A DNA stretch of 64,000 nt from a virus. The notes under the pieces were generated by a model, which saw only the letters and a program-made list of their open reading frames with translations, had not been told where the DNA came from and ran no database searches. Numbering within the stretch: position 1 is the stretch's first letter; each line of letters starts with the position of its first letter. The position numbers and the translations under genes are program-made. This document shows positions 36,884 to 51,612 of this stretch, piece by piece. The stretch is taken from the IMG/VR virus record IMGVR_UViG_3300008952_000003, positions 129,158-193,157 of that record. One strand, written 5' to 3'.

Positions 36884-37081
36884 GTGACTTATAATACACT
36901 TGGCGAAGGCAATATGATATGGACAGTCATCTTTAAGACTCTCTGTGAGAAACCAGATAGTTGTGTGACTCTCGGGCCACCGTCAAGAACGAGATGCTGG
37001 AACCTTGCAAACCAAAAATATAACAAATTGATCGCAATCATACCAGGAAATCACGAAGTTTATATTAAAAATAACTCTTGA
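36884..37081 (+). CDS. small hypothetical protein
   Basis: ORF in operon. Confidence 0.5.
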   Translation: MTYNTLGEGNMIWTVIFKTLCEKPDSCVTLGPPSRTRCWNLANQKYNKLIAIIPGNHEVYIKNNS

Positions 37082-37132
37082 CATACTCTTGACAATTTAA
37101 CACTAGACAAAATCAGAAATAGCGTGTATAAT
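37076..37132 (+). promoter_or_regulatory. 57-bp early promoter module, copy 1
   Basis: TCTTGACA-TAC-TCTTGACA..TAGACA-17-TATAAT; drives tRNA. Confidence 0.85.
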
Positions 37133-37145
37133 GTATATACATAAT

Positions 37146-37221
37146 ACGCTAGTAGCTCAGGGGTGAGAGCAGTCGTCTTATATGCGATTGGTCGGTGGTT
37201 CAAATCCACCCTAGCGTACCA
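37146..37221 (+). tRNA. tRNA-Ile, anticodon UAU
   Basis: ACGCTAG/CTAGCGT acceptor, GCTC/GAGC D arm, loop CT-TAT-AT, GGTGG-TTCAAAT-CCACC T arm, A73, CCA; 76 nt. Confidence 0.93.
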
Positions 37222-37248
37222 TTTAACCCACAACCATAAAGGTAAATC

Positions 37249-37503
37249 ATGATTAAAACTTGTAAACACTGTGAAATAGAATTCAATGTCAACTCGCGCC
37301 AAAAGCGCCTCGTCGGAGGATACATTAATGAGTGTCCAGATTGCGTCGAGGAGCGAGGTGGTGATAACTCGGAGCCCAAACACTTCGGAGTGACCGGTTC
37401 ACTCGGTGACGATGTTTCGGTAGTTCGCTTTGATAGTCAAAAGAAGCGAGATCAATTCCAGAAAGAGTATGGAGAAATTAAAACCCTCAAAGACTTTTTC
37501 TAG
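37249..37503 (+). CDS. small Zn-ribbon protein
   Basis: CKHC...ECPDC. Confidence 0.7.
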   Translation: MIKTCKHCEIEFNVNSRQKRLVGGYINECPDCVEERGGDNSEPKHFGVTGSLGDDVSVVRFDSQKKRDQFQKEYGEIKTLKDFF

Positions 37504-37560
37504 TCTTGACATTCTCTTGACAATTTAACCATTGACTTAACCTTGAAAATCATGTATAAT
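37504..37560 (+). promoter_or_regulatory. 57-bp early promoter module, copy 2
   Basis: TCTTGACATTCTCTTGACAA..TTGACT-17-TATAAT. Confidence 0.9.
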
Positions 37561-37586
37561 TATTAGAAATCACACAGGAGCCTAAA

Positions 37587-38729
37587 GTGCTAAAATCAAA
37601 CCTATCTGTAGTACCCTCCGTCATCCCACCACTTCCACAGCAGTCCGCTATCCAGTGGGATACTTATCTTAAATCGTGCCCCACCCGACCAGCTCGGTGT
37701 CCGGTACGCGAACACGCCGGGATCAATGGCGGTATCGCAAAAGAATATTTAATAGATATTCACTTAATCGTAAAAGACCCTTACTATCAAAATCGCCTTC
37801 TCGGTGCCCTTGCGAACAAGATTAGTGAGTTAGCTAACCAACTCCACACTTGTCCAGAAGGGCTGAAAGTTGGTATCTGTGTGGCTCTTGGGCCCAACGG
37901 CGACCTTCTATTACGTTGGGGTAACCACCGACTTCGCGCAACTAAGCAAAACAATGGAAATAACTTAGCTATCCCTAACATGCCCGTAGGAAAAATCTGG
38001 GCTTCAATTTATGACTTTCCAACGTCACAGGTTCGCAAGTGGCAAGCTGTAGAAAATAACATACACGATGTCTCTAGTCCTGCTACAAAAGACGATAATG
38101 TACTTTCTTTGAAGGAAATGGTTGCCGCTGGCGAATTGGATACTTCTGCTTCCAAGTTTGTCGATTGCGACGACGAAGAAAAGGATAAGCGTTTAAAGAA
38201 GATTATTAAAGAAACGATGCCAAGTTGGTCGACCAAAATTAAACGTTTGATTAAGGAGTTTCGTCGCCAAAATACCAATGTTTATCGAGTGGAATCGTAT
38301 ACAGCCCGCGAAATGAAAACTTACTTTAAGAAAAACTGTCCACTTCACGGAGAACTTGATTTTAGCTCCTATTCGGAGAGTAATAAGAATATTATTAAGT
38401 CCACATTGCCAGATGGTTCAGTTCGTTCGAGCAAGATTGTATTTACTCATGCTGCCAGCGCAGACCTTGGCGGCGCAATCTTTCAAACTGCCATGCAAAA
38501 CAAATTTGTTGACGTAGACTGCGACGAAGTTGTCTTAGTAAGTTGTCATAGCGGCAAGGCTGAAGCTGGTTTGAACTCGACTCGAAAGGACCGAGAAACA
38601 TTAGTCCGAACTTGGAATTCGGCACTACCAGGCGGTTCTCATACAAGGTTGATTGATAGGATCTTCGTACTTCCGCAGACAACAGCGGAAAAGAAAGGTT
38701 CTAAGTTTATTTCTAAGAAGCCTCTATAG
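37587..38729 (+). CDS. ParB-like N-terminal domain protein (paralog of 16809-17936)
   Basis: WGNHRLRA, EN...SPATK shared with paralog. Confidence 0.6.
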   Translation: MLKSNLSVVPSVIPPLPQQSAIQWDTYLKSCPTRPARCPVREHAGINGGIAKEYLIDIHLIVKDPYYQNRLLGALANKISELANQLHTCPEGLKVGICVALGPNGDLLLRWGNHRLRATKQNNGNNLAIPNMPVGKIWASIYDFPTSQVRKWQAVENNIHDVSSPATKDDNVLSLKEMVAAGELDTSASKFVDCDDEEKDKRLKKIIKETMPSWSTKIKRLIKEFRRQNTNVYRVESYTAREMKTYFKKNCPLHGELDFSSYSESNKNIIKSTLPDGSVRSSKIVFTHAASADLGGAIFQTAMQNKFVDVDCDEVVLVSCHSGKAEAGLNSTRKDRETLVRTWNSALPGGSHTRLIDRIFVLPQTTAEKKGSKFISKKPL

Positions 38730-38780
38730 ACTACACTAGTACCAAGGGGCTGACTCCCCCTAACACCTTTCCATAAGGAC

Positions 38781-38837
38781 TCTTGACATTCTCTTGACAA
38801 TTTAACCATTGACTTTAACTTAAATAACGTGTATAAT
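38781..38837 (+). promoter_or_regulatory. 57-bp early promoter module, copy 3
   Basis: TCTTGACATTCTCTTGACAA..TTGACT-17-TATAAT. Confidence 0.9.
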
Positions 38838-38861
38838 GTATGTATAAATAGGGAGAGAGGC

Positions 38862-38886
38862 GCGGGTTCAAATCCTGTCACGACCA
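38862..38886 (+). pseudogene. tRNA 3'-half remnant
   Basis: GCGGG-TTCAAAT-CCTGT T arm then CACGACCA; no 5' half. Confidence 0.5.
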
Positions 38887-38965
38887 AGGGACCAGTTGTG
38901 AAGTGTTGCTAGGTGGCACGCTCGCCCTATTTATATCACCAATCAATTCAAACCAGGAGCCCAAA

Positions 38966-39130
38966 ATGCTGAACGACCCATCACTTCAAGACCTCATTCA
39001 AGAAACCATCGAAGAATATTATAAAGAAGAATATAATTACGGTTTAGATTATGACGAAATGCCAGAAGATTTAGAGGGCGAATGCCCCGAGTGGATTAAG
39101 GAACAACTTGATGACGACATCCCATTTTAA
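38966..39130 (+). CDS. small acidic hypothetical protein
   Basis: SD AGGAG before ATG 38966. Confidence 0.55.
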   Translation: MLNDPSLQDLIQETIEEYYKEEYNYGLDYDEMPEDLEGECPEWIKEQLDDDIPF

Positions 39131-39356
39131 ACAAGGAACACAAACAACACTGAAGCCCAATAAAGGGGCATCACAGCGGACCCGAAATCGTATTCGCGAA
39201 AAGGGTCCGTCTTTTATTGTCGAGCTTGAGGCGACAATGTTAACCAACACAGCCTCTTCAATTGATGGGAAAATTTGTGTTTGCTTTCGACAAATCGATG
39301 GTGATTGGTCGGGTTGGCTCCCCGTCGACGAGATTCACGCAATAACTTCACTATGA
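39108..39356 (+). CDS. small hypothetical protein
   Basis: overlapping operon ORF. Confidence 0.6.
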   Translation: MMTTSHFKQGTQTTLKPNKGASQRTRNRIREKGPSFIVELEATMLTNTASSIDGKICVCFRQIDGDWSGWLPVDEIHAITSL

Positions 39357-39367
39357 GAGAGAGCAGC

Positions 39368-39592
39368 ATGAAAAGACAATACTTCGAGCCAGGGCAAATT
39401 GTTCAGCTAGACCGCCCAGAATTGGGCGAGCGCGATACGTGGAGATTTATTGTTCTATCTTCGGGTCACAGTCGGTCGCGTCCACCTGGCCGATATTCTC
39501 TTTATTGCATTCGCGCCCCATCTTATCGTAAAGCAGACCTCAATACCATTCAGTATGTATCTGGTTGCAGCCTGCGAATAACGGAGGACTAA
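39368..39592 (+). CDS. small SH3/KOW-like array protein
   Basis: YFEPGQIVQL. Confidence 0.6.
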   Translation: MKRQYFEPGQIVQLDRPELGERDTWRFIVLSSGHSRSRPPGRYSLYCIRAPSYRKADLNTIQYVSGCSLRITED

Positions 39593-39595
39593 TAA

Positions 39596-39817
39596 GTGAA
39601 GTTTAAATCATCAGATTTTAGCAAGGGTCAATTTTATAAGTTGAAGACCCAATCCTTTATTATCTTGGATAAGGAATCAATAAGTGGGTGGTTCGACCGC
39701 ATCTCTGTGTACTTTGTCACGTGCAGAAACAAGCAGTTAAGAGGAAAGAAAAAAGAATTTACCAGTGGTGGTTTTGAAATTTACTTAAACAAGCTTTGCT
39801 CCAGCGAACATAAATAA
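39596..39817 (+). CDS. small SH3/KOW-like array protein
   Basis: DFSKGQFYKL. Confidence 0.55.
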   Translation: MKFKSSDFSKGQFYKLKTQSFIILDKESISGWFDRISVYFVTCRNKQLRGKKKEFTSGGFEIYLNKLCSSEHK

Positions 39818-40042
39818 AATGACCGAGGAGGTTACATAACTTGAAAGCGTAGCCCGTTGCTATATAGGGCTACCTCTTGATTCTAAGGGTTGGCGACAGC
39901 GCTGCTTCAGGCGCGGCGCATTATGAGCCTTCTATCTCCATTATCAAGGGGGCGCGCGCGAAGCGTCAACAAACAATTTATGTAGATAGGAAGCCGGATA
40001 TCCGAGCAAAACGGCATCGACCTCCTCGGTCATTTTATTTAT
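39810..40042. ncRNA. putative structured ncRNA closed by a 23-bp perfect inverted repeat
   Basis: 39810-39832 is the exact reverse complement of 40020-40042; nested stems inside; no ORF. Confidence 0.6.
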
Positions 40043-40047
40043 AATTC

Positions 40048-40104
40048 TCTTGACATTCTCTTGACAATTTAGTTCTTTACTTTCTCTCTAAAAGCGCGTA
40101 TAAT
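40048..40104 (+). promoter_or_regulatory. 57-bp early promoter module, copy 4
   Basis: TCTTGACATTCTCTTGACAA..TTTACT-17-TATAAT. Confidence 0.9.
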
Positions 40105-40130
40105 GTAAGTATACAAAAGAGAGTTGTGCC

Positions 40131-40379
40131 ATGCTAGACATCAATAACTTAAAGTCAGGGCAAATGGTGAGATACTCCTCAAAGATCTTTGATTCTGAGA
40201 AATCGGTAGAGTCTTTGTGGATATTGCTAGAGGAAGAACTCGGAGCCCATCCGCTGGGCCGCGCGTTCAAACTGTATCAAATATATGATAGTCAAAACTA
40301 TGTCGACCCCCAGTACATAACAGTTACTTACATTTTTAACTCACTCAACGCTAAAGATTTCACGCTGGAGGTGCCATGA
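40131..40379 (+). CDS. small SH3/KOW-like array protein (tandem paralog A)
   Basis: LKSGQMVRYS...VESLWILL. Confidence 0.65.
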   Translation: MLDINNLKSGQMVRYSSKIFDSEKSVESLWILLEEELGAHPLGRAFKLYQIYDSQNYVDPQYITVTYIFNSLNAKDFTLEVP

Positions 40380-40636
40380 TAGATATCAATAGCTTAAAGT
40401 CAGGGCAAATGTTAAGATATTCCGTAAAATTGTATGCATCGCAGGAACACGTTGAATCTTTGTGGATATTGCTGGGGGAAAGTAAAGCGCATGCGTTCTG
40501 CCGCCCCGGAGAAAGATTGTTCAAAATGTATCAAATATATGATAGCCACAATGACCTTTTCATCTTGCGTAATCGACCAACCGATTACATTTTTAACTCA
40601 AGTACCATTAAGAATTTTGTATTGGAGCCGGCATGA
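40376..40636 (+). CDS. small SH3/KOW-like array protein (tandem paralog B)
   Basis: LKSGQMLRYS...VESLWILL; clearly similar to 40131. Confidence 0.65.
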   Translation: MIDINSLKSGQMLRYSVKLYASQEHVESLWILLGESKAHAFCRPGERLFKMYQIYDSHNDLFILRNRPTDYIFNSSTIKNFVLEPA

Positions 40637-40845
40637 AAGATGAGCTTAAAGCAGGACAATTAAGAACTGTTCCACGTGGTGGGCTTGAGGGCGCAGTGGT
40701 TATTCTTTTGGATATACAGGAACACGCAAGAGTGTTGACCCCCAAGAATCAGATTTGGAACTCGATTATCGTCTTTTCACCCAGTCCATACTGGGAGCCT
40801 GGCGAGAAAATAGGTCTTCGTGGCATAGATTTGATGAACTGGTGA
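40633..40845 (+). CDS. small SH3/KOW-like array protein
   Basis: ELKAGQLRT. Confidence 0.55.
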   Translation: MKDELKAGQLRTVPRGGLEGAVVILLDIQEHARVLTPKNQIWNSIIVFSPSPYWEPGEKIGLRGIDLMNW

Positions 40846-40848
40846 GTT

Positions 40849-41082
40849 ATGGATTTCGAACCCGGCCAAGTCCTGAATCTATATAGTGGCTACGAGCAGA
40901 GCGCTGAAGAGGAGCTATTGTCATCCAGTATAATCGTGGAAGTTCGAGAGCACTCCCTGCTTCTGTTTAAATTTTATACTAGATTTCCAGACCCAACAGA
41001 GGGCGCCCTCGTACTTCAAGCTAAAGAATATATAGAAGAAGAGTGGGATAATAAATATTTCTATTGGAGAATAGAAAGTTAA
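40849..41082 (+). CDS. small SH3/KOW-like array protein
   Basis: DFEPGQVLNL. Confidence 0.55.
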   Translation: MDFEPGQVLNLYSGYEQSAEEELLSSSIIVEVREHSLLLFKFYTRFPDPTEGALVLQAKEYIEEEWDNKYFYWRIES

Positions 41083-41086
41083 TTCT

Positions 41087-41143
41087 TCTTGACATTCTCT
41101 TGACAATTTAGTTCTTTACTTTCTCTTCGAAAGCGTGTATAAT
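41087..41143 (+). promoter_or_regulatory. 57-bp early promoter module, copy 5
   Basis: TCTTGACATTCTCTTGACAA..TTTACT-17-TATAAT. Confidence 0.9.
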
Positions 41144-41168
41144 GTATATATAGAATGGAGTTTACCCT

Positions 41169-41771
41169 ATGTCAGAACAAGCCAAAAGACTAGATGCCTT
41201 CCTGAACAACAACAGTATTTCTGCCTCTGAACGCTCTTTTGGGGCCTCCCTAAAAAAGAGTGTTACAAACTACGGAAAGATGACAGAGCGCCAGTGGAGT
41301 GCTTTTCAGCGCATGGAGGCGCGCCATAGCCCCGAAGTCAAGGCCGCTCGAAAACAATGGGAGCAAGACTGGACCGAGGAGAAGGCCAAGAATCTCCGAA
41401 CCGCCGCCGAATACTATCTATGTAATCCTCCATACTTCGGAGAGGCAGCCCGAACAATTATCGCAGACCCCACCTACATTCCAAGTCAAAAATTGTATCA
41501 TAAGATGGTAGAGAATAAGTATGTTCAGAAGGTTTTAACGACACTCGCCACAGAGCCGCTCTATCCAGTTGGCAGTCTTGTCCAGGTCAGAAAGACCGCC
41601 AGAGAATATGCGTACAAGCTCCGCGACCGCCAGGCGCTAGTTGTAATGAATGACGGCGTAGTCAAGTCAGCCGCCAAGGGCGCCCGAACTTACACAATTC
41701 TTCCATTCGGAGAATCAGGCACCATCACCATCGAAGAACGCTGGCTCAAGAGAGCCCCGAGGGCTAAATGA
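41169..41771 (+). CDS. hypothetical early protein with C-terminal SH3-like segment
   Basis: YPVGSLVQVRK near C-terminus. Confidence 0.7.
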   Translation: MSEQAKRLDAFLNNNSISASERSFGASLKKSVTNYGKMTERQWSAFQRMEARHSPEVKAARKQWEQDWTEEKAKNLRTAAEYYLCNPPYFGEAARTIIADPTYIPSQKLYHKMVENKYVQKVLTTLATEPLYPVGSLVQVRKTAREYAYKLRDRQALVVMNDGVVKSAAKGARTYTILPFGESGTITIEERWLKRAPRAK

Positions 41772-42025
41772 GCACCCATCTATCCCCGAATCCGGGAGAT
41801 ATCCTTGAGGAGAACTGCCCCAGAAGTGATTTCAGGGCAAGATATATTGTTTTATCTATTATCCAAGATAAGCATGCCCCTACTCATGGAAATTCTTACA
41901 AGTTGTACACCTTGTTTGTCGAGTCTCCGTGCCCATCGGATAGGGATTTGCAGGGTACAATCGACACCGTATACAATCTGGAAATAAACAACACCGACCA
42001 CGACGAATGGCGTATCATCTCTTGA
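41768..42025 (+). CDS. small SH3/KOW-like array protein
   Basis: PNPGDILEE...RYIVL. Confidence 0.55.
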   Translation: MSTHLSPNPGDILEENCPRSDFRARYIVLSIIQDKHAPTHGNSYKLYTLFVESPCPSDRDLQGTIDTVYNLEINNTDHDEWRIIS

Positions 42026-42076
42026 CATTCTCTTGACAACTTTTCTCTTTACTTTCTCTTGAAAAGCGTGTATAAT
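42020..42076 (+). promoter_or_regulatory. 57-bp early promoter module, copy 6
   Basis: TCTTGACATTCTCTTGACAA..TTTACT-17-TATAAT. Confidence 0.9.
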
Positions 42077-42124
42077 GTATATGTAAGTTAGAGATTCGCC
42101 TACAAACTTTTTGGAGCTATCACA

Positions 42125-42919
42125 ATGGCATACACAAGAAACTACAAAAGAACCGTCCGATGCTCATACTGCGGAGATTCCGGTCACAACCGCTCATCAT
42201 GCTCAAACCTGAAAGAGCATATTGAAAAACTACGCGCCGAACACGGCGACGAGCATTATACCGTTCGAGTCCATGACCGCAAGAAAGCAAAACGGAAGGC
42301 CAGCGGAAAGAGTCGCAAGTGTTCATACTGCGACGAAGGCGGCCACAACCGCGCAACCTGTTCGCACTTGAAAGAGCACATGGCTGAAACCAGAGCTAAA
42401 AACTCTGAATTCAGGAAGGCTGTTTATAGGCACCTGTGCCGCCTGGGAATAGGCGTTGGGGCCATAGTTTCGAGCGACACCCACCAGAATCGTATCGATC
42501 CAGACAACTTTGAGAGTGCGCGCTACCGAGTTCCGCAGATTGTAACAGATATAAATTGGCTCGGAATCAACGTATGGAACCGCGAAGTTTGGTATTTTGA
42601 CAGTTCCTCCTCGGGCCACACTGGCGACCGCCCAGCACCTCTTTTCGTCGTTCCTATGGGGAACCTCGGCGCCTACAACTGGAAGAATGTAATGGGCTAC
42701 CCGTTCGATGAGGAGCTTTTAAAGCTGTTTTTGAACGAGCGTCTTTTGGGAGAGCTAAAGGACGGCTCTCACTGGCGTGCTAATGAGAAGGAAAACCACT
42801 TCTTAACTATTGAATCACCCGTTCCGCCCACTGCCCCACCTAAAGGCTGGTTTAGTTCCAAGGACAAGAAAATTAAAGAGATTTACAAGCGCCGAAAGAG
42901 TTGGCAAGGGGCTTTATAA
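42125..42919 (+). CDS. protein with two CCHC zinc knuckles
   Basis: CSYCGDSGHNRSSC and CSYCDEGGHNRATC (CX2CX4HX4C). Confidence 0.85.
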   Translation: MAYTRNYKRTVRCSYCGDSGHNRSSCSNLKEHIEKLRAEHGDEHYTVRVHDRKKAKRKASGKSRKCSYCDEGGHNRATCSHLKEHMAETRAKNSEFRKAVYRHLCRLGIGVGAIVSSDTHQNRIDPDNFESARYRVPQIVTDINWLGINVWNREVWYFDSSSSGHTGDRPAPLFVVPMGNLGAYNWKNVMGYPFDEELLKLFLNERLLGELKDGSHWRANEKENHFLTIESPVPPTAPPKGWFSSKDKKIKEIYKRRKSWQGAL

Positions 42920-42925
42920 GCCCTT
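42906..42925 (+). terminator. hairpin, possible terminator
   Basis: AAGGGGCT-TTATA-AGCCCTT at the ORF end. Confidence 0.45.
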
Positions 42926-42931
42926 TATCAC

Positions 42932-42988
42932 TCTTGACATTCTCTTTACAATTAAAGTATTGATTTATGTTCTAAAAGCGTGTATAAT
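42932..42988 (+). promoter_or_regulatory. 57-bp early promoter module, copy 7
   Basis: TCTTGACATTCTCTTTACAA..TTGATT-17-TATAAT. Confidence 0.85.
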
Positions 42989-43033
42989 GTATATATAAGT
43001 TAGAGAAACAACACAACAACCTGGAGACTTAAT

Positions 43034-44188
43034 ATGTCTATTGCTATCACATTCGCAAACCTCAATTCCATGATTCCAACACTCCTTTCGGGAGACGAAA
43101 AAGACCTTTATTCAGTTCTTATTCGCGGCCGCCACGGCATCGGGAAATCATGGGTTGCTTATCAAACTGCTGCCGGCCTCACTTGGGACGCCTCGGAAAA
43201 CAAGACGCGTCCGCTAAGAGGGAGCGAAAAAGCCCTCCCAGTGGTTGAGATTCGCGCCTCCCAAATGACCGAGGGCGACCTTCTCGGCCTCCCTTCTCCT
43301 CATGAAGTCGACATTAACGGAGAAAAAGCAGCTTCGTTGCGTCCTTTCGCGTGGCTTGTTAAAGCCTGTACCGAGCCCGTTGTCCTTTTCCTTGATGAAG
43401 TTGACCGAGCCACAACGGAGGTTCGCCAGGGCTTCTTTCAGCTTGGTGATAGTCGTCAAATTAACGGCTGGAAACTTCATCCTGGCACTGTTGTTTTTGG
43501 CGCGGTAAATGGAGGAGTTCATGCTGCACAATATCAGGTAGCTGATATGGACCCCGCAGAGCTTGACCGCTGGGTTACGTTTGACGTCGAGCCATCTATC
43601 GAAGATTGGCTCGCTTGGGGCAAATCCGAAGTTCATTCTATTATCTGGGATTTTGTCAATCAAAACCATGATCATCTTGAGCACAAGGGGGAATTCGAGC
43701 CGGGCACCGTGTACCCTTCGCGCCGCTCGTGGCATCGCTTGAGCAATACTCTTGCAAAAGTTGATATGCTCGACGAAGAGAGTCCAAATCTGGGGCTGCT
43801 ATTCAATCTCTCTCATGGGTTCGTCGGCTTTGAGGCCGCCGTAGCCCTCCGTGATTTTGTTGAGAATTACGAGCGCCAAGTCACTGTTGAGGACATCTTG
43901 GTCCATGGCAGAATAGATAAAACCAAGGACTTCGGACTTGTCGACCACGTGGCCCTCATCGAAAAGATTGACGCAAGTGGGGTTTTCGCCGCAGCAATTG
44001 AGAATTCGAAAATGATCAACTTGGTCGATTACTTCGATGCACTCCCAGCAGAGGCCCGCATGAAACTGTTTACAACCCTGACCGCAGCTAACAGCCAGGT
44101 ATCCGCCGAGAATGGAGCGAACTTCCACCGCGAACTGGCCAAGCAAGGCAAAGTGGAAGCATTTATCAAGCTTCTTGGTGGAAAATAA
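43034..44188 (+). CDS. MoxR-like AAA+ ATPase
   Basis: Walker A GRHGIGKS, Walker B LFLDEVDR, GAVN, DPAELDRW, SRRSW. Confidence 0.88.
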   Translation: MSIAITFANLNSMIPTLLSGDEKDLYSVLIRGRHGIGKSWVAYQTAAGLTWDASENKTRPLRGSEKALPVVEIRASQMTEGDLLGLPSPHEVDINGEKAASLRPFAWLVKACTEPVVLFLDEVDRATTEVRQGFFQLGDSRQINGWKLHPGTVVFGAVNGGVHAAQYQVADMDPAELDRWVTFDVEPSIEDWLAWGKSEVHSIIWDFVNQNHDHLEHKGEFEPGTVYPSRRSWHRLSNTLAKVDMLDEESPNLGLLFNLSHGFVGFEAAVALRDFVENYERQVTVEDILVHGRIDKTKDFGLVDHVALIEKIDASGVFAAAIENSKMINLVDYFDALPAEARMKLFTTLTAANSQVSAENGANFHRELAKQGKVEAFIKLLGGK

Positions 44189-44211
44189 GAGAGTGTGATA
44201 GCAAAGGTTGC

Positions 44212-44250
44212 AGCGCTGGCGTCGGTTGGTTGTTATCCGACGCTAGCGCT
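44212..44250 (+). terminator. 14-bp hairpin, probable terminator
   Basis: AGCGCTGGCGTCGG / CCGACGCTAGCGCT followed by a pyrimidine tract. Confidence 0.65.
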
Positions 44251-44257
44251 CCCTTTC

Positions 44258-44314
44258 TCTTGACATTCTCTTGACAATTTAATCCTTTACTTTTGCGCTA
44301 AAAGCGTGTATAAT
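44258..44314 (+). promoter_or_regulatory. 57-bp early promoter module, copy 8
   Basis: TCTTGACATTCTCTTGACAA..TTTACT-17-TATAAT; leader to ATG identical to copy 5. Confidence 0.9.
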
Positions 44315-44339
44315 GTATATATAGAATGGAGTTTACCCT

Positions 44340-45674
44340 ATGACACCGACACCCTTTAATCTTGACGAACATATTGTTGGCCTTCTCCGAGACGAGCCCT
44401 TCTTCGCCGCCCTCTCGCGCCGCATGGAAAAGGTGGCATCGAGGTCAGTTCCTACGGCTGGAGTAGCTTTTAATGAGGAGCGCGCCCGGTTTGAGCTATA
44501 CTATAATCCCGAATTCATGGCAGACATGCTCTCGCAAGATAAGAAATATGTTAAGGGCATTCTTTTACACGAGTTCTATCATATCATGCTTTTACACGTA
44601 ACTTCTCGCATGCCCGAAGGCAAGATGACGAGAAAGTGGAATATCGCTACTGACCTCGCCATTAACAGCGAGCTATCTGTGTTTGCGGCTAACAGCGAAA
44701 CTCCAACTGGGTACGCCGTTGAAAGCTCGCTCTTGCCGCTCGATAAAGCGCTAATTCCCACTGTTGGGCCATTTTCCGAACTGAAGCCACATCTTTCGGC
44801 TGAAGAGTATATGGTTTTATTACCAGAATCCCCAGAGCAAGATAATAATCCAGCCGACGGCCCCGGCGAGCCCGGTGACGATTCTGACTCCGATGGTCCC
44901 GGCAACCCAAGCGACGGCGATGGTGGTTCGTCACCAAGCGACCAGGAAGGCGACGAACAAGGAGGAGAGGGAAGTGGAGACGGCAACGGCTTCGATGATC
45001 ATTCTGATTGGGGTTCTTCCGATGGTTCCGACGAGAATCGAAAAATAGCCGAAGAGAGACTAAAAGAAGCCATCAAGGAGGCATATGTCGAGGCCCAGTC
45101 TCGCGGTTTTGGTTCGGTTTCTGCTAGCATGAGGCGCACAATTAAGGATGTTATAACTCCCAAGGTAAACTGGCGCTCAATCCTGCGCTCTTTCGTCAAG
45201 GCTTCGCAGAGAGCAGATAGAACCTCAACTATCAAGCGCCTGAATCGCCGATACGCTTACATTCATCCAGGCCGCAAGGCAAAGCGTCAAGCTAAAATCG
45301 CGGTTTCAATTGACCAATCTGGCAGTGTTTCCGATGGCATGCTCGTTGCATTTTATGCAGAGCTTGAAAAGCTGGCAACCATCGCTGATTTTACGATTGT
45401 CCCCTTTGATACCGAGGTTGCAGAAGAGCACATCCATGTTTGGAAGAAGGGCGCCCGCCACGAAAAGACTCGCTATAAGCATGGTGGAACCTGCTTCAAC
45501 GCTCCAACCAGGTGGGTCAACGAGAATAACTTTGATGGTCACATTGTCCTGACTGATATGGAGGCTCCAAAGCCCATTCCTAGCAAGTGTCAGCGTATGT
45601 GGATGACAACCAAGGCGCATGCAGAACGCCCTTACTTCCAGACCAATGAGCGAGTGATAGCAATCAATGACTGA
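44340..45674 (+). CDS. DUF2201-like metallopeptidase plus vWA-like domain protein
   Basis: LLHEFYH, NIATDLAIN, acidic G/D/S linker, SIDQSGS MIDAS, GGTCF, LTD. Confidence 0.85.
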   Translation: MTPTPFNLDEHIVGLLRDEPFFAALSRRMEKVASRSVPTAGVAFNEERARFELYYNPEFMADMLSQDKKYVKGILLHEFYHIMLLHVTSRMPEGKMTRKWNIATDLAINSELSVFAANSETPTGYAVESSLLPLDKALIPTVGPFSELKPHLSAEEYMVLLPESPEQDNNPADGPGEPGDDSDSDGPGNPSDGDGGSSPSDQEGDEQGGEGSGDGNGFDDHSDWGSSDGSDENRKIAEERLKEAIKEAYVEAQSRGFGSVSASMRRTIKDVITPKVNWRSILRSFVKASQRADRTSTIKRLNRRYAYIHPGRKAKRQAKIAVSIDQSGSVSDGMLVAFYAELEKLATIADFTIVPFDTEVAEEHIHVWKKGARHEKTRYKHGGTCFNAPTRWVNENNFDGHIVLTDMEAPKPIPSKCQRMWMTTKAHAERPYFQTNERVIAIND

Positions 45675-45903
45675 TAGATACCTTAAAATCAGCAATATCG
45701 AATCTTTAAAAGCTGGAGATATTCTCTGTCTTCCTATGAAGGGAGAGCTAGGTGAGTGGTCGAGGCTTGTTGTATACGAGGTTACGAAAAGGTTGTTGAA
45801 AACTTATGTATTGCTTGACCAAGCTGGTGGCTGGGCTCCAGGAGATATGTATAGTTTCCAGTTAATTGGCTTCGACCCTGCGAATTGGAGGCTACTAGCA
45901 TGA
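45667..45903 (+). CDS. small SH3/KOW-like array protein
   Basis: SLKAGDILCL. Confidence 0.55.
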   Translation: MTDRYLKISNIESLKAGDILCLPMKGELGEWSRLVVYEVTKRLLKTYVLLDQAGGWAPGDMYSFQLIGFDPANWRLLA

Positions 45904-46127
45904 TTCTTGAGTCTGGAACTATAATCGAGGAAATCTCGGATGGTCAAGTCGATATCCGGTGCCTGGTGTTGGAGTACGAAAAACATCCAACGGTTCGAGA
46001 CTTGGGAACGTATGTTTTATATGTGATATATTCAGGCAATACATACGCGCTCCCCGGCGAGACGATGGTGGTCAGGAGTACCCTTGTTGAATCTACGCAT
46101 GCAAATTATCACTGGAGGATAATCTAA
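45900..46127 (+). CDS. small SH3/KOW-like array protein
   Basis: ILESGTIIEE. Confidence 0.55.
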   Translation: MILESGTIIEEISDGQVDIRCLVLEYEKHPTVRDLGTYVLYVIYSGNTYALPGETMVVRSTLVESTHANYHWRII

Positions 46128-46378
46128 TGAAGTTTAAACCTGGAAATTTATTGAAGCACGAGAGGTCTTCCGGGCTCTGGATTGTCGTTGAGGCGCTCCC
46201 AATAAATAAGAAGGGCTCGCCTCACCGCCCGACCGTCTTTAGGCTCCAGATGACTGCCACTTGTGTCCAGCCCGGTACTTCAAACCTCCACTATCCTGGG
46301 AGCAGCGATACCTGGCTTTTCAAGGAGAAAGATGGAAGCGACCATAACGATATGTGGAAGGTGATAAATGAAATTTAA
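46127..46378 (+). CDS. small SH3/KOW-like array protein
   Basis: MKFKPGNLLKH. Confidence 0.6.
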   Translation: MKFKPGNLLKHERSSGLWIVVEALPINKKGSPHRPTVFRLQMTATCVQPGTSNLHYPGSSDTWLFKEKDGSDHNDMWKVINEI

Positions 46379-46613
46379 AGTCGGAGATTTAATAACTCAC
46401 AAGCCTTTGGGTGGTAATACCGCCGTTGATGCGATTATCTTGAAGCACTGGCAAACTGAAACACCAGGAATGGGCGCCCAACAAAAGACGCAGCGCGTTG
46501 ATAACGTGCATTTATTCATAACTTTCGACGAGGCTGACCCGACTGCAGTTGGCGATATTGACGTGATGTGCGGTTTCCGAGAGCAGCATTGGAGCTTAAA
46601 AAATGGAGTTTAA
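46368..46613 (+). CDS. small SH3/KOW-like array protein
   Basis: MKFKVGDLITH; similar to 46603 (KHW, DNV.LF.T.D). Confidence 0.6.
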   Translation: MKFKVGDLITHKPLGGNTAVDAIILKHWQTETPGMGAQQKTQRVDNVHLFITFDEADPTAVGDIDVMCGFREQHWSLKNGV

Positions 46614-46824
46614 AGCTGGAGATATTGTAGTTTATAAACAGGACGGCAAATCGTCAATTGAGGGCATTGTCGTCAAGCACTGGAAAGGGCCAAACCCGTG
46701 GGTAGCGGGAACCATTGATAATGTAGATTTATTCGTAACTTTGGATACGACCTGGCCTTCTAAGCTTCATAAAATTGAGACGTTTAGAAATTTTAGTACC
46801 CAGATTTGGGAGGTGAAAACATGA
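46603..46824 (+). CDS. small SH3/KOW-like array protein
   Basis: MEFKAGDIVVY. Confidence 0.6.
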   Translation: MEFKAGDIVVYKQDGKSSIEGIVVKHWKGPNPWVAGTIDNVDLFVTLDTTWPSKLHKIETFRNFSTQIWEVKT

Positions 46825-47048
46825 AAAAGGGCGACCTAATTCAGCTTCGAACCTCGGTTGCCGCGCGCCGCTGCAGGGGGATTGTATTGGAAGACGCCCC
46901 AAAAGATGCCAATTTTAGAACGAGAATCGCGGTGTATATGTTTTACGTTCCATCCTGGAACAACCTTAAATCAGGGGAAATTTGGGACATCCCCCTGAAC
47001 AAGCTAGGCAAGCAATATGAGATTTTGGGTAAAATCGAAACTATCTAA
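46821..47048 (+). CDS. small SH3/KOW-like array protein
   Basis: MKKGDLIQL. Confidence 0.6.
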   Translation: MKKGDLIQLRTSVAARRCRGIVLEDAPKDANFRTRIAVYMFYVPSWNNLKSGEIWDIPLNKLGKQYEILGKIETI

Positions 47049-47051
47049 GGT

Positions 47052-47321
47052 GTGAAAAAGAGATATCTCCCAGGTCAAATAGTGAGTTTTATGAGGACTG
47101 GGGCTATATATTTGTTAATTGAGGAAGTGGAGATATCAATGCTTTCACCTCATTTTTTTAAAGGAACTGGTCAGGGGTTTAGAGCTAGAATTCTCTATAC
47201 AGGAAGAACCTGGTCGAAACCAGGCGAAGAAAGGGAGATATTCATCCTGCACGCATCATCTTATTACGAGATTTTATCGGACGTCGCCCCAGCCGCGCCC
47301 GCCCAGATAGTTGGTGATTAG
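47052..47321 (+). CDS. small SH3/KOW-like array protein
   Basis: YLPGQIVSF. Confidence 0.6.
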   Translation: MKKRYLPGQIVSFMRTGAIYLLIEEVEISMLSPHFFKGTGQGFRARILYTGRTWSKPGEEREIFILHASSYYEILSDVAPAAPAQIVGD

Positions 47322-47359
47322 CGCGTTTCGCGCGATTTTTTTCCGCTAAATTTTTTTTT
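47321..47359 (-). repeat. A-tract/CGCG intergenic motif, copy 1 (inverted relative to 56436)
   Basis: minus strand reads A9-TTTAGCGG-A7-TCGCGCGAAACGCGC. Confidence 0.55.
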
Positions 47360-47374
47360 CAACAGGATCACATT

Positions 47375-47632
47375 GTGAAGTTTAAACCAGGAAATATCAT
47401 CGAACATTGCCCCACCAAAACAAGATGGATTGTGCTCTCTGCAGAGAATGTCGAGAAAAGAACAGGAATAAACAGCGCTTATAAGCTAGAAGTCGAAGCT
47501 TATTGCGTCTATTTGGGAAAACACAAGAGGGCAATTAAATATTGGGAAGTTAATCAGCGTGATACCTTTGTTTTGACACAGCAAGATTTAAATCCGAGTG
47601 ACTTTGTATGGGAGGTTAGGAATGAAGTTTAA
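47375..47632 (+). CDS. small SH3/KOW-like array protein
   Basis: MKFKPGNIIEH; similar to 46127. Confidence 0.6.
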   Translation: MKFKPGNIIEHCPTKTRWIVLSAENVEKRTGINSAYKLEVEAYCVYLGKHKRAIKYWEVNQRDTFVLTQQDLNPSDFVWEVRNEV

Positions 47633-47813
47633 ACCAGGACAATTGGTGAGAAAGAAAGCGAGAAAAGGAGATCCAGACGCAATCTATTATGTATTGGACA
47701 CGAACTATCCTAAAATGCTGATTCATTGTGTTGAATCACTCTTTGATTTTATACAGGGGGAAGCCTATGAAGTCTGTGTTGGTGAGTGTGAATTGTTGAT
47801 GGATTACCGATGA
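47622..47813 (+). CDS. small SH3/KOW-like array protein
   Basis: MKFKPGQLVRK. Confidence 0.6.
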   Translation: MKFKPGQLVRKKARKGDPDAIYYVLDTNYPKMLIHCVESLFDFIQGEAYEVCVGECELLMDYR

Positions 47814-48055
47814 CCTCGAAACCCGCGAAGATTAGGCTTGAAGCGGGGGATATCGTAACTCTCGATTATGCCCGCGACAAGCCAAAGGGAGACGCGCCAT
47901 TATTCATAACGCTAGATGATCCGCCCTCGGTACACTATTCGGTGAATGTTTACTGCTTTTATAGCCCAGATCCAGGGTATGGGTACACGAATGCTGCTTG
48001 GCTTCATACAATTTTTGACATTTCCCAGAGCAGGTTAATAAAAGTTAATTATTGA
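47810..48055 (+). CDS. small SH3/KOW-like array protein
   Basis: RLEAGDIVTL. Confidence 0.55.
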   Translation: MTSKPAKIRLEAGDIVTLDYARDKPKGDAPLFITLDDPPSVHYSVNVYCFYSPDPGYGYTNAAWLHTIFDISQSRLIKVNY

Positions 48056-48076
48056 AAAAGTTTTTCTATTTACAAT

Positions 48077-48343
48077 GTGAGCGACTTCTTTCCAGGTGAT
48101 TTCATAGAGGAAACCATCGATAATAGAATAGTTGGCTATTATATAGTATTAACCAGGCATTATTTAAACGGTTGCAAAGAGGATGGCATGATTTTGGGAT
48201 ATTACACTTTAATAGTATATAGTACAGGACACGCATTGCCAACTCATTCTCCAGGATCAAACTGGTTTATCAAGCACTCTGATTTACAAAAATCCGATTT
48301 CAGAGTGGTATCCAGTGGCAAATTGTTGTGTCAAAGTCAATAA
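48077..48343 (+). CDS. small SH3/KOW-like array protein
   Basis: FFPGDFIEE...YYIVL. Confidence 0.55.
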   Translation: MSDFFPGDFIEETIDNRIVGYYIVLTRHYLNGCKEDGMILGYYTLIVYSTGHALPTHSPGSNWFIKHSDLQKSDFRVVSSGKLLCQSQ

Positions 48344-48642
48344 TAGAAATCAATCCGGGTGACATTGTGGCGGAGATACTTGGCGGAGAAGAGACGGGCC
48401 GATATATTGTCACGAGCAGAAGATTCGTGCGAGACCACACATTAAGAGAATATGTCATGTATGAGGCGATTATTATATATATAACTGATGAATGGACAGA
48501 CTTTCATAAGCCGGGTGATAAGTGGTCATTCGAATTGTATTCAGACGGGCACAGTATACAGGACGTTAGTTTCGGATCTTACACCTACAAAGTCCTGTTT
48601 AGAAGCTCGTTAACGTGGAAAGACATAGAAGTCATGGAATAA
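48328..48642 (+). CDS. small SH3/KOW-like array protein
   Basis: INPGDIVAE...RYIV...LTWKD. Confidence 0.6.
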   Translation: MSKSIIEINPGDIVAEILGGEETGRYIVTSRRFVRDHTLREYVMYEAIIIYITDEWTDFHKPGDKWSFELYSDGHSIQDVSFGSYTYKVLFRSSLTWKDIEVME

Positions 48643-48650
48643 ACACGCTA

Positions 48651-48989
48651 ATGACATTTGACGCAAAAACATTTAAAAAGAGCATCAGAAGGGGTGATAT
48701 CCTCGTTGAAAAGTACAAACTAACAAAGCACGGACATCGAGAAGTGGTTAGCATATATCTAGTATTAAACAGGCATATGGAGAGTGAACCCATGGTCGAT
48801 GGATACGAGAGAACACTTTTTTATAAAACCTATTTAATGTACGTTAATACTCGACAATGGTCATCAGGAGAGAAAAATCTGGTTGGAACGATATACTATT
48901 TATCAGAGCATGAAATCAGTGACCATCACAATTGGGAAAAACTGTTTGAATCTGGTTTATCATGGAATGATTCTTATCCGAGGACATAA
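48651..48989 (+). CDS. small SH3/KOW-like array protein
   Basis: IRRGDILVEK...ESGLSWND. Confidence 0.6.
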   Translation: MTFDAKTFKKSIRRGDILVEKYKLTKHGHREVVSIYLVLNRHMESEPMVDGYERTLFYKTYLMYVNTRQWSSGEKNLVGTIYYLSEHEISDHHNWEKLFESGLSWNDSYPRT

Positions 48990-48997
48990 AAAAGAAA

Positions 48998-49276
48998 ATG
49001 AAAATTGATGAGTTATCTCCAGGGGATATAGTAAGAGAGAAGGACGGCGATGAAGAAATAGCTCGTTATATAGTAATAAACAGGCATATCCAGCACCCAG
49101 GCGCACAATATTATTATGTCGAATATGATTGTATAATATTGTACTATAATGGTAAGTTATACCAGAGACCTGAAAAGGTAGGAACATGGTGGATAATTGA
49201 TTCAATCAATCTTAATAGTCCCAGAGAGAACTGGGAAATTGTGGTAGAAAGTGGGTTATCGTGGGATGATGATTAA
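48998..49276 (+). CDS. small SH3/KOW-like array protein
   Basis: LSPGDIVRE...RYIV...ESGLSWDD. Confidence 0.6.
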   Translation: MKIDELSPGDIVREKDGDEEIARYIVINRHIQHPGAQYYYVEYDCIILYYNGKLYQRPEKVGTWWIIDSINLNSPRENWEIVVESGLSWDDD

Positions 49277-49522
49277 TATCACAAAACGTAGATTAAAATA
49301 AGGGAATAATAGAATCACAATAGGCATGGAAGAAATAGGGGAATCACGGTGAGGATCTAGTACGTTGTAACTAGAATGTCAAGCGCCATTATTGTGAAGA
49401 TTCTGTCAATTCTTCATATATTTACTTGACAAATGTAAACACGCTTATATACCCCCTTATCGCAATCACAGTACTCATATCGAGTGATTAATCATATGCC
49501 ACCATCAAACACACTAATCGCG

Positions 49523-49556
49523 TGTCAAGTATTTAATTGTCAAAAGAATGTCAAGT
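49523..49556 (-). promoter_or_regulatory. minus-strand copy of the three-box module without a recognisable -10
   Basis: TGTCAA at 49523, 49538, 49549 (15 and 11 bp spacing). Confidence 0.7.
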
Positions 49557-49576
49557 GAAGATAAACAAGATTCCCC

Positions 49577-49606
49577 TTGACATTTCCCCCAATATCATGG
49601 TATACT
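49577..49606 (+). promoter_or_regulatory. sigma70-type promoter
   Basis: TTGACA-18-TATACT with TGn. Confidence 0.65.
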
Positions 49607-49622
49607 AGTATTATAGGAGAGA

Positions 49623-49763
49623 ATGATGGAAGCACTATTACGCAATATACTCCTGCTTTTTGGAGTGTTGTTCATAATTGACTTTGTAACTGAATATCCA
49701 AAGACATTCGATAATGTCGATGAAACCGTTGAAAACATTAAAGCCAAATTTGGCAGTAAATAA
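49623..49763 (+). CDS. small membrane protein (46 aa)
   Basis: SD AGGAG; one TM helix. Confidence 0.6.
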   Translation: MMEALLRNILLLFGVLFIIDFVTEYPKTFDNVDETVENIKAKFGSK

Positions 49764-49773
49764 GGAGATTATC

Positions 49774-49860
49774 ATGCCATCACGATTTACCGACATTGTA
49801 ATAGTGATATCACTCGCGTATCTTGTGGGTTTTGCATTGTATGCTTACATACTAGCTTAA
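49774..49860 (+). CDS. membrane micro-peptide (28 aa)
   Basis: SD AAGGAG; hydrophobic. Confidence 0.55.
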   Translation: MPSRFTDIVIVISLAYLVGFALYAYILA

Positions 49861-49966
49861 TCACAAAACACGTCAAACGCACAAATCTGACAGAAAATTC
49901 GGAGAGCCTATAAGAATATAAATATTATGTCCTCGGTCATATAGAGGGTTATAACACGAATATCAC

Positions 49967-50023
49967 TCTTGACATTCTCTTTACAATTAAGTGATAGACT
50001 TCAAACGCTATCGGGTGTATAAT
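49967..50023 (+). promoter_or_regulatory. 57-bp early promoter module, copy 9
   Basis: TCTTGACATTCTCTTTACAA..TAGACT-17-TATAAT. Confidence 0.85.
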
Positions 50024-50051
50024 TGTATTATAAGTCAGAGGAGCGACCCAC

Positions 50052-50243
50052 ATGAATAAAAAACGCCGTTCATATCGTCCACGCAAGCCGGCCCGCACGC
50101 CTTGGATTGTCTGTTGGACTCACAACACAACAGGATTCGCAGACGCGTCGACTGTGTACGCGAAAGACGAGGAACAAGCTAAGCTTTTGGCGTCTAACGG
50201 TTACACCTCGAACATCACAATTACCAGCGTTTATCGCGCTTAA
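50052..50243 (+). CDS. small hypothetical early protein
   Basis: SD GAGGAG. Confidence 0.65.
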   Translation: MNKKRRSYRPRKPARTPWIVCWTHNTTGFADASTVYAKDEEQAKLLASNGYTSNITITSVYRA

Positions 50244-50266
50244 TCACCCCAGTATAGGATAATAAT

Positions 50267-50662
50267 ATGAAAGATATCAGATTAATGATTGCAGAAAAAA
50301 TGGACGATATGCTTGACGAGCTTTTGTCAGACCTCGCGTACGACTTAGACCTGGATGATGCCGATTTGGATTACGACGTTAAACAGGATGTAAGTGATGA
50401 ATGGGGCACCATGGTCGATAAAATCACTGAAGCTGTTGAGAATCACGTTCAGGCAGTTGTCGAGGTTAAAACAGAGCAATTGCTTGAAGAGTGGAAAGGG
50501 TGGTCATTGCCTATTATCAAGAAAGAATGCGAACAAGATGGCGTCATGGACGGGCCAGCGCGCCGAGAGGATTGGTGCAATTTCGTCGACGCAAAGCAGA
50601 AAAACGGTGAAATCTCCGATTTTGTCGCTGAACTCGTGGATGCTGACGTTGAGAGTGTATAA
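50267..50662 (+). CDS. acidic hypothetical protein
   Basis: D/E-rich; REDWCNFVDA C-terminal motif. Confidence 0.65.
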   Translation: MKDIRLMIAEKMDDMLDELLSDLAYDLDLDDADLDYDVKQDVSDEWGTMVDKITEAVENHVQAVVEVKTEQLLEEWKGWSLPIIKKECEQDGVMDGPARREDWCNFVDAKQKNGEISDFVAELVDADVESV

Positions 50663-50754
50663 TGAATGACTCAATATTGGACTTTCTTGGCCTATTATCA
50701 ATCTTCGCAACCTGTTATTTCCTGCTAATCGCATCACAACTCATCGGAGCATAA
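50662..50754 (+). CDS. membrane micro-peptide (30 aa)
   Basis: ATG overlaps upstream TAA; hydrophobic. Confidence 0.5.
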   Translation: MNDSILDFLGLLSIFATCYFLLIASQLIGA

Positions 50755-50756
50755 TT

Positions 50757-51026
50757 ATGTTTGACCCACACGCAATCGGACCTTTTGCAGAATCCCAAAC
50801 CAAGGCTTTAAGCTTCATTACGAGCCTTATCGTTAATACTGCAGTCACCGAGACTCTTAAAGTCATGGATGATATGCAGTTAGAAGGCAAACAATTGCTT
50901 AAAGAACTTCGAAGTTCCGAGGGCAATAAAAAAGAAGAAGTAAAAGCAGCTTTGAAACTGCACATTAAAGACTCTAAACTCTTGCTTGAAACCATTATGA
51001 TGAACCCAATCGAAAAGGATGCTTAA
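50757..51026 (+). CDS. small hypothetical protein
   Basis: operon ORF. Confidence 0.6.
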   Translation: MFDPHAIGPFAESQTKALSFITSLIVNTAVTETLKVMDDMQLEGKQLLKELRSSEGNKKEEVKAALKLHIKDSKLLLETIMMNPIEKDA

Positions 51027-51029
51027 ACC

Positions 51030-51299
51030 ATGCGTATTGAAAACTATAAATCAAATCAAACTATCGTTCACACTAACACTTATACCGCTCTCTTGAGCTA
51101 TGGAGTCCCTCAAGTTGTTGTTTGTAACCCAGATATGCCATCGCTTGGTAATACTGTGCTTGTGAATAATAAGAAATACTCAAACACTACTTCGAAGCAC
51201 CGCAATGCTTATTTGCGTCAATTGTGTGATCGTTCATATACTATCATCGAAGCAACCCCCGCAGAGATTCAAGAAGTCACCGGCCTAGAAACCCGATAA
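51030..51299 (+). CDS. conserved small phage protein
   Basis: LLSYG...KYSNTTSKHRN motif typical of phage early ORFs. Confidence 0.65.
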   Translation: MRIENYKSNQTIVHTNTYTALLSYGVPQVVVCNPDMPSLGNTVLVNNKKYSNTTSKHRNAYLRQLCDRSYTIIEATPAEIQEVTGLETR

Positions 51300-51310
51300 T
51301 GGAGGACACT

Positions 51311-51457
51311 ATGAATATCGAGTTAACACCTGAAGAATTGGACGTTCTACGTCACGCACTCAAAGTCGAGATATCCTCCTTTAAAGGCGAGGAATTGGAA
51401 GACCCCGATCTTCAAGCTCTCTTCTCCCTCGTTCGCAAGTTAGAAGGTGCAGAATGA
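51311..51457 (+). CDS. small hypothetical protein (48 aa)
   Basis: SD GGAGG. Confidence 0.6.
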   Translation: MNIELTPEELDVLRHALKVEISSFKGEELEDPDLQALFSLVRKLEGAE

Positions 51458-51546
51458 CAAACACACGAAAGGTACTTATAATCGCACATATCGCTGACTG
51501 TGCATGCTGGGCGTCATTGGGCTTTCTAATAGGACAATTGATTTAG
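51454..51546 (+). CDS. membrane micro-peptide (30 aa)
   Basis: ATGA overlap with upstream gene; hydrophobic. Confidence 0.45.
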   Translation: MTNTRKVLIIAHIADCACWASLGFLIGQLI

Positions 51547-51583
51547 CCGAGGGCCTAACAAATAAATAAACCCATATCAGAAT

Positions 51584-51612
51584 AAGCCAGGTAACCCCTG
51601 GCTTTTCTTTTG
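51584..51612 (+). terminator. intrinsic terminator
   Basis: AAGCCAGG-TAACC-CCTGGCTT followed by TTCTTTT. Confidence 0.8.

Follow-up and report, generated by a model that had tools for sequence, protein, structure and literature searches.

The 64-kb window analysed here, which is the last 64 kb of a 193,157-bp virus record from an uncultured marine phage (IMG/VR record IMGVR_UViG_3300008952_000003), carries two arrays of small genes on the + strand, seven in the first (A1-A7) and 14 in the second (B01-B14), with a MoxR-type AAA+ ATPase gene and a metallopeptidase-VWA gene lying between them. An earlier note had described these genes as 21 highly diverged SH3/KOW-like proteins, and all 21 open reading frames (ORFs) are found where it placed them, on the + strand, encoding 63-112 amino acids (aa) with the most plausible starts. 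As judged from sequence comparisons, the arrays hold 20 members of one superfamily, and the family is real and coding; the count is 20 rather than 21 because one ORF, A2 at 39596, scores only 2.5% against the superfamily profile. The genes of the arrays are the following.

39368..39592, + strand: A1, family member, 74 aa; taken in by the iterative hidden Markov model (HMM) at round 11, with zero decoy hits
39596..39817, + strand: A2, a real small gene, membership unsupported by HHalign
40131-40379 and 40376-40636, + strand: A3 and A4, overlapping by ATGA and forming a recent tandem pair; BLASTP 6e-24, 54% identity
40633..40845, + strand: A5, family member, 70 aa; HHalign 90.7%, E 1.2e-6, 66 columns
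40849..41082, + strand: A6, family member, 77 aa; HHalign 90.6%, E 1.3e-6, 64 columns
41768..42025, + strand: A7, family member, 85 aa; used to seed the iterative search, and overlapping the upstream 200-aa gene by ATGA
45667..45903, + strand: B01, family member, 78 aa; HHalign 95.3%, E 2.4e-8, 65 columns
45900..47321, + strand: B02-B07, six members starting at 45900, 46127, 46368, 46603, 46821 and 47052; BLASTP, HMM and HHalign
47375..48055, + strand: B08-B10, three members starting at 47375, 47622 and 47810; BLASTP and an AlphaFold2 model of B08, with B10 the weakest
48077..49276, + strand: B11-B14, four members starting at 48077, 48328, 48651 and 48998; BLASTP and an AlphaFold2 model of B14

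The genes are tightly packed: 10 of the 18 junctions within the arrays overlap by 1-16 nucleotides (nt), and at a further five the genes lie 3-8 nt apart. Overlapping junctions combined with repeated domains could suggest a single repeat protein assembled through stops or frameshifts, and ORFs this short might also be thought to arise by chance. Both possibilities were rejected, and we assign them a next to negligible probability. The frame changes at junction overlaps of 1, 4, 11 and 16 nt; each ORF has its own start, with a GGAG-like or weaker purine-rich Shine-Dalgarno-like match upstream in 14 of the 21; the ratio of nonsynonymous to synonymous substitution rates (dN/dS) between orthologs is below 0.5, and whole units are gained and lost in relatives, both of which favour single genes; and the two structural models described below are complete single domains.

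Kinship, distribution and predicted fold

Relatedness among the array genes is visible at several depths. Plain BLASTP bears out the four sub-families that had been named from the letters alone, with E values of 6e-24 for A3/A4 (40131/40376), 3e-15 for B04/B05 (46368/46603), 2e-11 for B03/B08 (46127/47375) and about 1e-10 for B12-B14 (48328/48651/48998), which have a common C-terminal tail, SGLSW, and which are joined by 48077 at 1e-7. The N-terminal motif that was put forward as the mark of the family is indeed enriched, but it is not a defining feature: its strict form occurs in only seven of the 21 candidates, against three of the 354 other + strand ORFs of the genome, and a looser form, fitted post hoc, in 21 of 21 against 7 of 354.

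Deeper links emerged from profile methods applied to 80 related marine phage loci, which were fetched from IMG/VR with the VWA protein as bait. An iterative HMM seeded with A7 and run on the six-frame ORFs of these loci, together with reversed-sequence decoys, took in 15 of the 21 candidates by round 13, A3 and A4 being drawn in at rounds 11-12, with zero reversed-sequence and zero minus-strand hits. Rounds 10-13, along with independent HHalign tests, were used because past round 15 the model drifted toward a 50-70-aa type, abundant among distant relatives, and lost members from the window. The all-against-all HHalign comparison that had been proposed as a check, run on shallow ortholog alignments with 34 conserved small ORFs of the same window as controls, placed 20.5% of the 210 candidate pairs at a probability of at least 50% (maximum 100), with A7 matching B02, B13 and B14 at 96-97%, compared with none of the 714 candidate-control pairs (maximum 44.6, for ORF 35961). 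When the round-10 profile, built without the candidates under test, was used for independent scoring, A5, A6 and B01 obtained the values listed above, B04 94.5%, B06 87.0% and B10 67.2%, compared with at most 2.2% for all controls. Two outliers that had been assigned to the family fared differently: 26243 (3.4%) is not supported as a member, and 35961 matches the N-terminal motif over its first 14-19 residues but nothing beyond.

Within the 193-kb genome, the family is found in a single 15-kb block only. When all six frames of the entire genome were searched with the profile, the 16 hits obtained all fell at window positions 39353-49273, and in five whole relatives every profile hit is near the VWA gene. 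Across the 80 loci, there are about 818 profile hits (median 9 per locus, maximum 32), all on the coding strand, with zero decoy hits. Most of the distant relatives display a minimal form of 50-70 aa with a consensus MKVGDLV start, an IGIVVEV strand and an LEVISE end. Distant relatives also include a protein of about 160 aa with the barrel copy at the C-terminus, behind an unrelated N-terminal domain (for example, L045:14406-14897, and also in L077, L016, L022 and others).

Outside these loci, the family is an orphan. None of the proteins, and none of the small ORFs of the relatives, has a significant Pfam or PHROG match; sequence profile searches of PDB gave nothing below E 0.29; and KOW-type Pfam profiles hit no member in the window, EFP_N alone reaching E 0.004, sub-threshold, in two of 95 aligned members. 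A profile search of 1.84 billion representative proteins yielded just 52 matches, all unnamed marine metagenome proteins. For A2, the protein atlas gave no lead.

The predicted structures of two members, modelled with AlphaFold2 from independent alignments of different clades, converge on the same architecture. The model of B14 (48998), from the 95-sequence alignment, has a mean predicted local distance difference test score (pLDDT) of 90.0 and a predicted template modelling score (pTM) of 0.81, with strands at 11-16, 19-32, 40-50, 64-68 and 78-83 and a turn at 69-72; that of B08 (47375), from 16 sequences of the B03/B08/B04/B05 clade, has a pLDDT of 90.1 and retains the strand order of B14 plus two loop helices. 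In both models, a single domain, which fills the whole chain, is built of five antiparallel strands that close into a strongly bent SH3-like barrel; strands 4 and 5 are separated by a short 3-10 turn. The earlier note, which had called the fold SH3/KOW-like and held that unrelated folds would speak against its proposal, is thus in agreement with the models, both of which are predicted barrels of one SH3/KOW/Tudor type. For B01, a search among 5.8 billion sequences found three non-identical homologs, too few for an independent model.

In a structural scan of 48,161 PDB representatives, the leading matches were identical for both models and covered equal chain ranges (Z 5.3-6.6, rmsd 2.1-3.2, 52-64 residues), the common chains being 8s8u_B, 5wxk_B, 4l0j_A, 4l5g_A, 7egs_B and 5dma_A. 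These leading matches comprise EF-P domain I/EfpL, eIF5A, the Pelota N-domain, the TraI translocation-signal domain, CarD RID and the UvrD/PcrA Tudor domain, followed at lower ranks by Spt5 KOW, LSm and Tudor domains. Foldseek searches of PDB and BFVD returned nothing at E <=1e-3 for either model. Because the Z-scores are modest and Foldseek gave no significant match, we keep the assignment to an SH3-like small barrel, with no named family.

The 95-sequence alignment agrees with the idea of a conserved scaffold with variable loops, given that the core is kept and the loop lengths vary. The only invariant residue is G9; the other well-kept columns are hydrophobic and fall in the five strands, and insertions are mostly in inter-strand loops, with one long insertion site within modelled strand 3. 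No polar residue is conserved except the Asp/Gln/Glu that follows the glycine.

Among the fold matches, CarD RID and UvrD/PcrA Tudor (Z 5.0-6.6 with both models) raise the question of whether the members, like the CarD/Mfd RID and UvrD/PcrA Tudor domains, could bind host RNA polymerase and redirect transcription. The N-terminal F-x-x-G-D-h-V strand resembles those domains, and B05 matches the Pfam profile CarD_TRCF_RID (PF02559) over its first 23 residues only (E 0.038). However, that match, at 14.5 bits, is under the curated cut-off of 23 and is seen in one of the 95 members; the EF-P, eIF5A, TraI and Pelota domains score as well; and 20 different RNA polymerase binders in a single phage seem unlikely. 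We consider such a role highly improbable.

Copy turnover and selection

The closest relative, L005, is 72-88% identical to the window at the nucleotide level, and it provides a view of selection on individual copies. In all ortholog pairs with L005, dN/dS is 0.07-0.45, with a median near 0.16, and none approaches 1; the values are 0.16 for A1 (86% identity), 0.09 for A5 and 0.07 for A7, and A2 also is kept in L005, with 82% identity and a dN/dS of 0.16. The neighbouring small accessory genes are at 0.1-0.2, and the AAA+ and VWA genes at 0.04-0.05. Such values imply purifying selection on the retained copies and no arms race. The repertoire had been called diversifying, which holds for the old divergence of the paralogs and for whole-gene gain and loss, but not for ongoing positive selection. 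Hypermutation was considered and rejected, given that the orthologs are conserved; no mutagenic-repeat signal was looked for.

What changes between relatives is the set of copies. The framework genes are syntenic across L001, L002, L005 and L044, whereas the intervening members differ in number, identity and place. The A3/A4 pair of the window corresponds to a single copy in L005 and L001; L005 has two extra copies and lacks A6 and B12, and A6 has no ortholog in L001 either; in L001 and L044, genes resembling B03 and B08 are located upstream of the AAA+ gene. Comparison with these copies, the BLASTP sub-families and the reading of junctions all agree with the stepwise duplication proposed in the earlier note.

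Two junctions were compared base by base with L005. At B03/B04, the window tracks one L005 gene as far as a shared 5' motif (ATGAA-TTTAAA--GGAGATTTAAT) and then another, a switch that brackets a complete additional gene of L005; where B14 ends, agreement shifts from one L005 copy in the body to the following copy in the conserved tail. Breakpoints inside short motifs common to the copies, at these two junctions, point to unequal homologous recombination. The sequences thus fit a scenario in which copies are gained, lost and moved through such recombination at motifs shared by paralogs.

Promoter cassettes and neighbouring genes

The 15-kb region is cut into cassettes by a repeated promoter module, and unrelated genes also lie within it. 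The module combines two upstream TTGACA boxes, spaced by 11 nt, with a GTGTATAAT -10 box and a weaker -35-like box; ten + strand copies were found, all within window positions 37076-51630 and zero elsewhere in the 193 kb. The modules that head the array cassettes, together with the other features that bear on their expression, are these.

38781..38868, + strand: promoter module heading the A1-A2 cassette; repeat family D1/D2, sigma70-like hexamers matching at 11 of 12 positions
40048..40135, + strand: promoter module heading A3-A6; module repeat and sigma70-like consensus
41087..41174, + strand: promoter module heading the 200-aa gene and A7; module repeat and sigma70-like consensus
43034-44188, + strand: MoxR-type AAA+ ATPase, between the two arrays; Pfam AAA_5
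44258..44345, + strand: promoter module heading the VWA gene and the B array; module repeat and sigma70-like consensus
44340-45674, + strand: metallopeptidase-VWA protein, between the two arrays; DUF2201_N 7.8e-24, DUF2201 4.1e-13
46113-46127, 46350-46368, 46590-46603, 46806-46821 and 47605-47622, + strand: Shine-Dalgarno-like sites in the Trp motif, read from the sequence
47321..47343, + strand: terminator-like hairpin and T-run splitting the B array; 5-bp all-G-C stem, a consensus match only

The arrays had been described as standing under promoters, and repeated sigma70-like modules are indeed found ahead of them; from this consensus, the array genes would be transcribed early by the host RNA polymerase. 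A scan with a terminator consensus gave 15 sites, compared with 13.8 expected in shuffles, and the only convincing one, at 47321, is away from any promoter module.

There may, moreover, be translational coupling between the genes. At several junctions, the stretch encoding the conserved C-terminal Trp of the preceding gene contains or adjoins a GGAG-type Shine-Dalgarno-like sequence; at B02/B03, B03/B04, B04/B05, B05/B06 and B08/B09, this sequence is part of the TGG-GAG-GT or TGG-AGG codons of the upstream Trp-x-Val strand. Since these codons carry the GGAG of the next gene, they may be under both protein and translation-initiation constraint.

Just past the B array, there are two looser promoter modules on the minus strand, at 49365 and 49537, pointing leftward. 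They occupy an AT-rich stretch (49365-49560; GC content 0.36) and face + strand modules, including that at 49959-50023; the minus strand downstream of the two shows no gene of appreciable size.

The position of the AAA+ and VWA genes, flanked by arrays here and in all 80 related loci, invites the thought that the members are interchangeable adaptors, substrates or regulators of these two proteins, steering the machine to different targets. The first 8 nt of B01 are also the last 8 nt of the VWA gene, stop codon included, and the B01 ortholog keeps this place in L001, L002, L005 and L044; B01-B07 lie behind the same promoter module as the VWA gene, and no terminator-like site intervenes ahead of 47321; and the fold matches include a Lon specificity factor that is SH3-like (5ycq_A, Z 5.0). 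However, the association is biased because the VWA protein served as bait for the loci; the presence of unrelated genes in the same promoter block accounts for the co-location; and an HMM-detected member abuts the VWA gene in only five of 79 loci, although the HMM is blind to the B01 type. On balance, we find this relationship distinctly unlikely, and its more specific version, with the arrays as swappable SH3-like specificity adaptors (or decoys) for the MoxR-type AAA+ and the metallopeptidase-VWA protein, more doubtful still. If there were such an adaptor library, the phage could direct a single remodelling or proteolytic machine against many host proteins, and unequal recombination at the shared motifs would bring in new targets and remove them.

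Several neighbouring features deserve mention in their own right. The metallopeptidase-VWA protein has an HEFYH motif and a low-complexity insert of some 70 residues, acidic and rich in Gly, Asp and Ser, for which alignment with close relatives is poor or fails altogether, in nucleotide and in protein comparisons alike. The 200-aa protein encoded at 41169-41771 has a C-terminal stretch of 70 residues that is SH3-like by eye (a PVGSLVQV strand); it was rejected as a family barrel, profile comparison giving at most 4%. At 42125-42919, under its own promoter module, is encoded a 264-aa protein (Pfam zf-C2H2_10 at 1.7e-8) with two CCHC zinc-knuckle-like units, specified by a 62-nt direct repeat (42161-42222 and 42320-42381, 76% identical). 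The non-coding stretch 39810-40042, between A2 and the next promoter module, is absent at this place in L005, and similar sequences, 72-86% identical, are found downstream of the homolog of the 200-aa gene in L001, L002 and L004/L044; it looks like a movable element.

Elsewhere in the window are encoded a DnaB helicase (2317-3672), a DnaE-type Pol III alpha subunit (9977-13408), an adenylosuccinate synthetase (13664-14665), a GroEL-type chaperonin (24059-25627) and a class II ribonucleotide reductase. The replication set of this phage is unlike that of T4. When the phage collection was searched at the nucleotide and protein levels, no cultured phage emerged as a close relative, and the only homologs to appear were distant ones of the VWA protein, in jumbo phages.

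Candidate functions and known systems

Taken together, these observations make it probable, at roughly 60% by our estimate, that the 20 paralogs are orphan, single-domain SH3-like barrels of the KOW/Tudor/LSm class that act as early binding modules. The members appear to lack catalytic residues, and they would constitute a set of small, non-enzymatic modules that bind host or phage macromolecules early in infection, a different one for each module; such a set could serve in host takeover, counter-defence or RNA handling. Varied partners are favoured over one common ligand because the isoelectric points (pI) of the members span 4.3-9.7 and no polar residue is conserved besides the Asp/Gln/Glu.

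Several points weigh against this assignment. The function has been read off the predicted fold and the context only, and the early expression off consensus promoter matches alone; whole-gene dN/dS below 1 gives an arms race no support; the SH3-like fold is very common, and Z-scores of 5-6.6 fall in the range that the tool labels as possibly just a common arrangement; and the members in the window are linked to the 50-70-aa type mostly over the N-terminal half.

Of all unexplained phage proteins, the largest pool comes from small early genes, and here one orphan family, with a confidently predicted fold and hundreds of relatives in marine viromes, makes up about two thirds of the early cassette block. 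The gain and loss of copies can be read straight from the sequence, and the 20 small soluble proteins are a defined set whose partners can be screened. For now, this is a new sequence family that has yet to reveal a new mechanism.

The most relevant precedent comes from T4, in which GoF and MotB.1, along with Frd.2, are early proteins with a five-stranded SH3/LSm-type barrel, encoded by three scattered genes (2025, PMC12152347). These paralogs are not linkable by BLAST and not required under laboratory conditions, and no function is known for their wild-type forms; the mutant GoF(D25Y) stabilises an mRNA, whereas wild-type GoF and MotB.1 had no effect on RNA (PMC12152347). The existence of such early barrel proteins, one of which can in mutant form stabilise an mRNA, and the presence of LSm/Sm and Edc3 LSm domains among our fold matches (Z 4.7-5.5), would be consistent with members that, early in infection, modulate phage or host mRNAs in their stability or translation. 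However, comparison of the family alignment by hhalign gives only 0.3% against GoF and 0.4% against MotB.1, with single-sequence targets and hence limited sensitivity; the T4-type C-terminal domain is absent; roughly half the members have an acidic or neutral pI (4.3-6.7); and the wild-type T4 proteins lack the RNA effect. A role in mRNA regulation accordingly seems unlikely to us.

The early binding modules proposed here have partial counterparts in several known systems. With the T4 GoF group, the members share the character of small early phage proteins, the fold class and the presence of several diverged paralogs per genome. Unlike that group, which has a linker and an extra C-terminal domain, they are single-domain proteins of 63-112 aa, and instead of three scattered genes, there are arrays of 7 and 14, in a phage with a different host lineage. 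With the EF-P/eIF5A N-domain, Spt5/NusG KOW, CarD/Mfd RID, UvrD/PcrA Tudor and TraI domains, they share the strand order, the 3-10 turn and a first strand that opens with h-x-x-G-D-h-V, at Z 5.0-6.6 for both models; unlike those domains, they are free-standing and have long loop insertions and, in B08, short helices.

At the level of genome organisation, the closest parallel is with the promoter-early stem-loop (PeSL) cassettes, which in T4-type phages form hyperplastic regions (Arbiol et al. 2010, PMC2839356). As in those regions, small genes that look non-essential are arranged in cassettes split by a repeated strong sigma70-like promoter element, and close relatives vary by gene insertion, deletion and replacement. 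Unlike in the PeSL regions, the exchange points examined fall inside coding motifs shared by paralogs rather than in promoter elements, and one family accounts for most of the block's genes.

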